Source: a virus (Duplodnaviria; Caudoviricetes). Taken from it: a DNA stretch of 26,543 nt. Made by a program: the position numbers and the translations under genes. Of the stretch, positions 396 to 1,673 are shown piece after piece (the first letter of the stretch is position 1; each line of letters starts with the position of its first letter). The stretch lies in IMG/VR virus record IMGVR_UViG_3300007735_000552, positions 1 to 26,543 of that record; one strand, written 5' to 3'. Under the pieces are notes generated by a model. It saw only the letters and a program-made list of their open reading frames with translations, did no database searches and had not been told where the DNA came from.

Positions 396-414
396 GGTCG
401 GGGTTCCTTTCGAC

Positions 415-473
415 GGTCTCGTCAGTGCCCGCGTGACGGGCAGACCGGCCCCCGAAGGGGCGCGGTTTCGACC
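415..473 (-). ncRNA. Hammerhead ribozyme, type II (stem II open)
   Basis: Minus strand: GGUC-GAAA-CCGCGCCCC-UUCG-GGGGCCG-GUC-UGCCCG-UCACG-CGGGCA-CUGACGA-GACC. Core CUGANGA, GAAA and GUC are present. Stem I is 6 bp, stem II is 4 bp, and stem III has one bulged C and a cUUCGg loop. Predicted cut is between 443 and 442. Confidence 0.92.
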
Positions 474-525
474 TGCTCAAACGGTGAAGTTGCGGTAGCT
501 CTTGAGCGCGCGGGTCGCGGTCCTT

Positions 526-972
526 TCAGGCGTAGGCCACGCGCGAGGCGCTCACGCGGCCATCGGGCGTGCGGGTGTAGCAGCGGTGGTCCTCTCCGAC
601 GGAGTGACGGAGGTGCGCCGCGTGGAGGGCATCGCCCGCGGGCGCGACGCTGACGGCGATGCGCGACGAGAGGATCACCAGCGCGGGCACCGCGAGGGCG
701 ACGGCGCGACGCGCGCGGATCTCGTCCGCGCGAGCCATGCGCGCCTCGTGCGCCACCCGCTCACGCTCCGCGGCGGCGCCGCTGTCGATGTCGTTGAGCT
801 CGATGCAGTGCGCCGCGAGGGCGGCGAGGATGCGGCGCGCCGCCATGTGATCGCGCATGATCGCGCCGCCGTCGGTCTGCCCTTCGCAGAGGGCCGCGGT
901 GCGGTACGCGGCGAAGGGAAGCGCCTCGGAGACGATGTCGTTGGCGGCGGCGGTGAGGGCGATGATGTTCAT
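526..972 (-). CDS. Hypothetical protein (148 aa), first gene of leftward operon
   Basis: ATG at 972 (MNIIALTAAAND...) with SD GAAAGGA at 987-981, directly downstream of the sigma70 promoter. The longer upstream start in the ORF track runs through the promoter and is unlikely. Confidence 0.7.
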   Translation of the reverse strand: MNIIALTAAANDIVSEALPFAAYRTAALCEGQTDGGAIMRDHMAARRILAALAAHCIELNDIDSGAAAERERVAHEARMARADEIRARRAVALAVPALVILSSRIAVSVAPAGDALHAAHLRHSVGEDHRCYTRTPDGRVSASRVAYA

Positions 973-1012
973 GGTGGTGGTCCTTTCGTCGCGGTTCGTT
1001 GCGACAAGAGAG

Positions 1013-1041
1013 AATCTAAACCGGCCGCTAGCAGGGGTCAA
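1013..1041 (-). promoter_or_regulatory. Leftward sigma70-type promoter
   Basis: TTGACC (1041-1036), 17 bp spacer, TAGATT (1018-1013), in a locally AT-richer patch about 40 nt upstream of the ATG at 972. Confidence 0.75.
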
Positions 1042-1068
1042 GAGGATCGTTGCACTTTTCTGTCGAAC

Positions 1069-1084
1069 CGCTGGAACTCCAGCG
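1069..1084. promoter_or_regulatory. Inverted repeat, candidate operator
   Basis: CGCTGGA-ac-TCCAGCG, perfect 7-bp arms, 27 nt upstream of the leftward -35. Confidence 0.4.
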
Positions 1085-1146
1085 TTTTCGCGCGACGATT
1101 CCCCGGCGTCGACCCGCGCCGAGGGTGCATCGAGAGGAAGCGCGCA

Positions 1147-1175
1147 GTGTAGGCGCCGCACCTACACGCGCCTAC
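1147..1175. promoter_or_regulatory. Nested inverted repeats, candidate operator next to TTGACA
   Basis: GTGTAGG (1147-1153)/CCTACAC (1161-1167), with an alternative GTAGGCGC (1149-1156)/GCGCCTAC (1168-1175). A perfect TTGACA follows at 1184-1189. Confidence 0.4.
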
Positions 1176-1302
1176 CCCGGGCCTTGACACGCAGCGGCGA
1201 ACCGTGACCCTCTCGCGCGGAGTCCGTGACGGGCAAAGGGTGCCGCGAGACAGCACCCGTCCCGAGTCGGACGCGCCCCGCGTGAGGATCGTCGCGAAGA
1301 GG

Positions 1303-1332
1303 TTGACGCCCGGCGCGGGCCATGCGTACCCT
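1303..1332 (+). promoter_or_regulatory. Candidate rightward promoter
   Basis: TTGACG (1303-1308), 18 bp spacer, TACCCT (1327-1332), upstream of the rightward gene block. Confidence 0.45.
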
Positions 1333-1478
1333 TTACGCCACTTCGGTCCCGCTGCCCCGCCACAGGTGCGCCCTCATCCCGCGTACCTCGCCACGCGCCG
1401 CGGTCGTCGTCCCCCTCCCCGACCGGCCCGCCGCAGCGCGGAGCACGGTGGGCGCGGGACCGGAGTGACCCCCCCGCG

Positions 1479-1673
1479 ATGCTTCTCACCGCACGCGACC
1501 TCACCGCCCGCGGCTTCGCCCCGCGCACTGCGCAACGCCTCCTCGCGAGGCTCGCGCGCCAGGGCCACGCGGTGACAATCGCGACAGGCGGACGCCCTGC
1601 CCTCGCGGTCGACGCTGCGACGCTCGCGCGACTCGCGGGCGCTGACCTCGACGCGGTGATCGAGTGCCGCTGA
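1479..1673 (+). CDS. Small HTH-like DNA-binding protein (64 aa)
   Basis: MLLTARDLTARGFAPRTAQRLLARL...TGGRP is an excisionase/MerR-like wHTH pattern. Its end overlaps the next ORF. Confidence 0.55.
   Translation: MLLTARDLTARGFAPRTAQRLLARLARQGHAVTIATGGRPALAVDAATLARLAGADLDAVIECR

Follow-up and report, generated by a model that had tools for sequence, protein, structure and literature searches.

A type II hammerhead motif at a junction of exchangeable early genes in a phage record

Phage hammerhead ribozymes of the type II permutation have been known since 2011 (PMC3088659). As described there, they flank single, non-constant prophage genes, and it was proposed that they cut long transcripts into gene-length mRNAs; tandem prophage hammerheads cleave native transcripts of ∼2 kb in vitro, and one set does so in E. 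coli (PMC3088659). A hammerhead cut yields an upstream piece that ends in a cyclic phosphate and a downstream piece that begins with a 5'-OH (PMC6765202). The role of these ribozymes has been called open, with the suggestion that cutting yields pieces of differing stability or translation (PMC6155905, PMC6765202). A U at position 7 pairs with an A of loop II in a trans-Hoogsteen contact (PMC9217987), and the U-A reverse Hoogsteen pair is described as conserved (PMC6155905). With the synthetic ribozyme RiboJ, mRNA rises about twofold and protein two- to tenfold (PMC6206723). The PeSL cassettes of the T4-type phages RB49 and phi1 (Arbiol et al. 2010, PMC2839356) are repeated intergenic cassettes that run from stop codon to ribosome-binding site in variable regions; gene swaps and chimeric copies occur at these repeats. 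A literature search for phage ribozymes as insulators or recombination junctions returned nothing direct, with subscription papers thinly covered.

The window, by which we mean the whole stretch of DNA analyzed here, is a 26,543-base virus record (70.6% G+C) in which a terminase, a Mu-like portal and a Mu-like protease lie to the right of the early region. Its minus strand from 473 to 415 is a complete type II hammerhead motif (415..473), as judged by fold, descriptor and Rfam match, with the same permutation, core and phage-operon setting as the type II hammerheads (RF02276) that Perreault et al. (2011; PMC3088659) described from bacteria and prophages. Read 5' to 3', the 5' strand of stem II (GGUC, 473-470) is followed by the core GAAA (469-466), stem III (445..465; three pairs, a bulged C462 and five pairs under a cUUCGg cap, loop 456-453), the GUC triplet (443..445), stem I (426..442; six pairs, 442-437 with 431-426, and loop UCACG at 436-432), the catalytic core CUGACGA (419..425) and the 3' strand of stem II (GACC, 418-415). 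U444 pairs with A466. Sequence and Rfam alignment agree on the catalytic core and on C443 as C17, with the cut predicted between 443 and 442. The core elements CUGANGA, GAAA and UH lie at a three-way junction, the three stems are paired beside the core, and G10.1-C11.1 is present; stems I and III are capped and stem II is open. An earlier note on this DNA had described three closed stems; all three are indeed paired, but stem II has no loop, which is what makes the motif type II. The ATG at 395 is 47 nt downstream of the cut, and 3 nt separate the end of the motif from a GAAAGGA (411-405), both as the earlier note had placed them. After cleavage, the upstream product would have stem III at its 3' end, and stem I would cap the 5' end of the downstream one.

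The 60-nt stretch 414-473 is predicted to fold into exactly the hammerhead three-way junction (-32.9 kcal/mol; z -2.71, with 2 of 200 shuffles equally good). A loose type II descriptor matched once on the two strands of the 26,543-base window and never on either strand of 1000 dinucleotide shuffles. The hammerhead motif is not a chance match. When the Hammerhead_II model RF02276 was compared with 408-473, the full model aligned at 30.6 bits (E 0.00047 in a 901-base search), which falls short of its gathering cut-off of 37 bits, and an Rfam search at gathering scores accordingly gave no match for the ribozyme. The minus-strand Rfam check proposed in the earlier note thus succeeded as a full-length match but not as a score above the cut-off. 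Together with fold, descriptor and shuffles, this match bears out an intact hammerhead at 415..473.

The window motif departs from the consensus of Perreault et al. in its tertiary contacts. The consensus has a pseudoknot of at least four pairs between loop I and the 3' tail; by inspection, the window offers at most three pairs there, and has instead a six-pair stem I, a four-pair stem II, U436 of loop I at position 7 after the predicted cut, and A474 just 5' of stem II. Conservation makes A474 (minus strand) the predicted Hoogsteen partner of U436, a contact modeled on that of PMC9217987. As in the sTRSV-type contact, the U is seventh after the cut and the A adjoins the four-pair stem II; in the sTRSV type, however, the A belongs to loop II, whereas A474 lies in the single-stranded 5' flank of a stem II without a loop, and the contact is proposed from conservation. 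Neither these two positions nor the competing folds described below figured in the earlier note.

We searched 14 of the 64 parts of a viral collection with a pattern in which the core and the first pairs of stems I and III were fixed. The pattern matched 121 stretches, from which ∼590 are estimated in the whole collection, and 109 of the matches were distinct. A short stem I like that of the window occurs in 27 of the 109. All 27 have a stem II of at least four pairs and G-C at G10.1-C11.1. U at position 7 together with A beside stem II is found in 26 of the 27 and in none of the 81 others with enough flank; conversely, a loop I-tail pseudoknot of at least four pairs is reached by 1/27 of the short group vs 56/82 of the rest, and we rejected this pseudoknot for the short group. 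Because U7 and A are kept and can make a known trans-Hoogsteen contact (PMC9217987), we infer that the short group uses the U-A contact instead of the pseudoknot. The stem positions that the pattern left unfixed are paired, with several pair types, in 235 of 243 cells among these interrelated members (shuffle mean 162, maximum 180 of 2000). The earlier note had asked for covariation in related phages; pairing is kept here through sequence change. Only 2 of 23 short-group copies, from 20 of the subgroup's 24 loci, pass the Rfam cut-off, vs 18 of 20 pattern sites of the other group in 20 hand-picked loci. The cut-off therefore mostly misses a pseudoknot-free type II subgroup that makes up about one-quarter of the pattern matches. 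This subgroup may already lie within the data of Perreault et al. (2011), who refer to a trans Hoogsteen contact in the legend of Figure 2 and include a count of non-pseudoknot contacts in Figure S5 (PMC3088659).

The setting of the ribozyme is that of its family. For context counts, six matches without 200 nt of flank were dropped, leaving 103; these counts are of interrelated sequences, not of events. A ribosome-binding site and an open reading frame of at least 30 codons lie within 60 nt downstream in 82 of the 103 (controls: 323/1545 random places and 8/103 in antisense), and the median distance from cut to start is 56 nt (range 41-94). An upstream reading frame stops within 15 nt in 82/103 vs 139/1548 random places, most often ending 2-3 nt before GAAA (43/82). 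With 82 of 103 matches showing it, the order stop, ribozyme, ribosome-binding site is the family norm. Some loci in the search are unusual in other ways. L024:99-3023 (-) has eleven Hammerhead_II matches above the Rfam cut-off within 3 kb, one per ∼150-440 bases; a twister-P5 ribozyme (L013:2456-2510, -) precedes a type II hammerhead of the same strand by ∼900 bases; and several pseudoknotted copies among L001-L121 (e.g., L004, L013, L033) have an extra U between core and stem II.

In the window, the ribozyme is part of a leftward operon, all on the minus strand, whose order is promoter-like site, leader hairpin, GAAAGGA, P0001, orphan GAAAGGA, a 44-nt coding-like stretch, ribozyme, GAAAGGA and P0002. 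The sigma-70-type promoter-like site (TTGACC-17-TAGATT, 1013..1041; one found vs 0.1 expected in shuffles) is one of a set of repeated early cassettes, with related copies in the relatives L123, L124, L127 and L135, and the operon is presumably transcribed from it. The leader hairpin (988..1005) starts 7 nt after the -10 hexamer and is predicted to be flush with the 5' end of the primary transcript, given the putative start site. This spacing and a hairpin that ends at GAAAGGA recur in 6/6 promoter copies found. The window has three GAAAGGA motifs, each on the minus strand of this operon (starting at 987, 527 and 411): one before the first gene (981..987), one that overlaps the stop of P0001 and is followed by no start codon (521..527), and one before P0002 (405..411). 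P0001 (526..972) encodes 148 aa, and P0002 (3..395) is cut by the contig end. Neither has a Pfam or PHROG match at E 0.1, and peptide patterns found no relatives of either in viral contigs. The earlier note had called P0002 winged-helix-like. A low-confidence structure model (pLDDT 58) has the winged-helix order of elements, weakly predicted together with a small beta domain, and the best fold matches are winged-helix regulators (E 0.012 or worse; best Atlas score 0.81), so the label keeps weak fold support but no family match. No terminator-like site was found in 1-2200.

Units of promoter, hairpin and GAAAGGA (window 982-1100; L127:3634-3510, 1830-1700 and 1200-1075; L124:1-84) head each early-gene block. 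As far as the -10 hexamer, the window promoter matches the first promoter of L127; past it, the match is to the second-type promoters of L124 and L127, which suggests a chimera of two types. A stretch of ∼440 bases (window 1041-1480) separates the divergent early promoter from the first rightward gene; it contains no convincing gene, is ∼86-87% kept in L123/L124 and possibly holds control or packaging signals.

The stretch between P0001 and the ribozyme (477..520, minus strand) is most readily explained as the remaining 3' end of a gene since lost, now joined to a ribosome-binding spacer; its TGA (479-477) abuts the ribozyme. Here we used five sequencing runs (X1, X2, X7, X10 and X13), all in the form of assembled contigs, out of 24 listed, none of the 24 sharing half of the words searched. 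Contigs in three of four runs (X1, X7 and X13) match the window up to 520 and then continue into other sequence in the same frame, stop-free for the 30 letters shown; this is why we read 520-477 as a lost-gene tail, and why we rejected a frameshift in P0001 as its source. The arrangement at 477-527 (-), an orphan ribosome-binding site followed by a gene tail, is probably a short-homology deletion. The link between the ribozyme and its present upstream neighbor that the earlier note had implied is not supported here, as a remnant of another gene separates P0001 from the ribozyme. Other features of the contigs were set aside. An X1 contig that starts at 443 was rejected as a sign of cleavage, since word-based assembly would put a start just there from a branch at 414, 29 letters away. 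Higher summed depth over the ribozyme was rejected as a measure of copy number or expression; in X1, depth on non-coding 1051-1500 equals depth on P0002. Most of P0001 is without contig cover, which carries no weight either way.

A stricter pattern yielded the close relatives L122-L124 and L125-L127, in which core invariance follows from the construction of the pattern and was not counted. The portal protein yielded 33 loci, including L135; the unbiased loci are only those found by promoter (2/2 records) or portal. Eight close copies of the ribozyme (window, L122, L123, L124, L125, two in L127, and L135) stand between six different gene pairs, and stem III differs among them in length and sequence. 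The upstream stop abuts the motif in 7/7 copies of the relatives; the window is the exception, with its translated upstream stop 52 nt from the ribozyme owing to the remnant. L123 and L124, which may be one phage, have 87-92% identity with the window on the right side of 966 and 94% from 390 to 474; the DNA between these two blocks and past the second is unrelated. L127 packs three promoter units and two ribozymes into 3.6 kb, and its P0002 ortholog (94% identical) stands directly behind a promoter without a ribozyme, the same join being found in contigs of 4/4 runs; P0002 kept in this way shows that it does not need the ribozyme. L135 was found through the portal protein alone (75% identical); its ribozyme occupies the same region but differs in stem III and, by a compensatory change, in stem II. 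In this locus the P0002 homolog (59% identical) stands upstream of the ribozyme. These arrangements argue that the ribozyme is not tied to the winged-helix-like gene or to either neighbor, contrary to the special link to the flanking genes that the earlier note had implied. Of the portal relatives with at least 3.2 kb of left flank, only 3/11 have a type II hammerhead; in the stretch examined, the other eight have none and share no early-region DNA at E 0.01. In L006:1476-1010 (-), the gene after the ribozyme starts like its L127 counterpart and then passes into different sequence, which we take to be terminase small-subunit-like; we read it as a natural fusion or an assembly join.

We consider the motif very likely to cleave in vitro and, with less assurance, likely to process the operon in vivo. 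We favor, with moderate confidence, a role at a junction of exchangeable early genes, where it would cut the early message and give the next gene a standard leader. The leftward early message would be transcribed from promoter 1041-1013. The ribozyme would fold and cut during transcription, once GACC (418-415) has emerged and ahead of any competing pairing, with the U436-A474 contact assisting. After the cut at 443/442, the downstream gene would start with a 5'-OH and the stem I hairpin, followed by GAAAGGA; the flush 5' hairpin and 5'-OH may protect the downstream piece, and stem III and the cyclic phosphate the upstream piece. Each gene would be insulated from its neighbors, as by RiboJ. In a side role like that of PeSLs, the 60-85 shared bases of ribozyme and GAAAGGA spacer could serve as homology for gene swaps. 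That such ribozymes process transcripts has already been suggested in print (PMC3088659, PMC6765202). The operon-cutting idea of the earlier note fits the anatomy and the family-wide layout; its implied tie to these two genes is the part that we drop.

Hairpins in 5' leaders can stabilize mRNA (PMC4033574). Like the ribozyme copies, the promoter copies finish with a hairpin and then GAAAGGA, and units of both kinds occur before P0002-type genes. Since the leader hairpin and stem I are both flush and lead into GAAAGGA, the two units would give the same kind of gene start. This common start, the stabilizing capacity of leader hairpins and the fact that a 5'-OH end is not known to stimulate RNase E lead us to favor processing with insulation, and we give a net effect of insulation or stabilization, rather than decay, somewhat better than an even chance. 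More tentatively, the ribozyme in this phage group may take the place of a promoter at the RNA level and at the same time be a recombination junction, a natural plug-and-play insulator; orphan genes placed between two promoter or ribozyme units would then be held at a set level of expression regardless of their neighbors.

Folding of longer transcripts calls for caution. With ViennaRNA, the probability of stem II in the window drops to 0.00 once 30 nt downstream are included; its energy gap is 0.3-1.6 kcal/mol for transcripts ending at most 16 nt past the core and 4.7-5.7 kcal/mol in longer ones. Its rivals in full context are pairing with bases before the start codon and an alternative five-pair hairpin between core and 3' tail (411..424, minus strand), which is also predicted in the cleaved product. 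Stem II probability is below 0.1 in 13/27 subgroup members as well, and because about half of the subgroup behaves alike, we take the result as a caution, not a refutation; it may partly reflect a folding model without tertiary terms. Before the cut as well as after it, the ribosome-binding site is predicted to be partly paired. Cutting thus brings it no clear release, and we rejected cleavage-gated release of this site, predicted accessibility showing no consistent gain.

These pairings could, on the other hand, make cutting conditional: they, or a ribosome at the abutting stop codon, would hold the ribozyme off until the translation state changes. The disfavored stem II, the stops that abut the motif in the relatives or lie 2-3 nt before GAAA in the family, and a core-tail hairpin that is possible in 6/8 close copies, the distant L135 included, all speak for such a switch. 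That hairpin, however, is possible in only 3/27 of the subgroup, the translated stop in the window is 52 nt off because of the remnant, and both neighbors exchange freely; we regard conditional cutting as unlikely.

Cutting might instead lower downstream expression, the 5'-OH piece being degraded faster and expression stepping down along the operon, much as glmS cleavage is followed by degradation (PMC6765202). The close ribozyme pattern had 0 matches in GTDB genomes and thus points to no host or RNase set. Against faster decay, the promoter leaders have the same flush hairpin, and the first base of the downstream piece would be paired (stem I has a probability of 1.00 in the window), which hinders 5'-end attack. 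We judge this reading improbable to much the same degree as the conditional one. Less probable still is that cleavage matters little and the element is kept mostly for the DNA homology it offers to gene shuffling, or as a slow, near-neutral passenger. Similarity does break at the ribozyme and at GAAAGGA, and P0002 occurs without the ribozyme in relatives. Homology alone, though, would not need the pairing and the U/A positions that are kept through sequence change, and swaps also occur at GAAAGGA spacers and promoters without any ribozyme. Processing with insulation therefore remains our preferred reading. The function of hammerheads in phages is an open question in reviews (PMC6155905, PMC6765202), and this locus does not answer it. 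It does offer a natural comparison, with one gene family found behind a promoter alone, behind a ribozyme and in front of a ribozyme.

Set beside the PeSLs, which combine a repeated sigma-70 promoter with a stem-loop reaching to the ribosome-binding site, it is the promoter units of the early region, not the ribozyme, that match; PeSLs, which also form mini-circles, consist of promoter and terminator without a ribozyme, whereas 1-2200 of the window has no terminator-like site, and they belong to T4-type phages whereas the window phage has a Mu-like portal and is not T4-like. Short natural ribozyme units of the kind described here are candidates for further insulator parts. RiboJ was engineered and sits behind a promoter, whereas the window ribozyme is natural and lies between genes; the likeness is one of presumed function, not membership. 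In both, the ribozyme stands directly before the ribosome-binding site, where it gives, or in the window would give, a uniform hairpin leader whatever lies upstream (PMC6206723).
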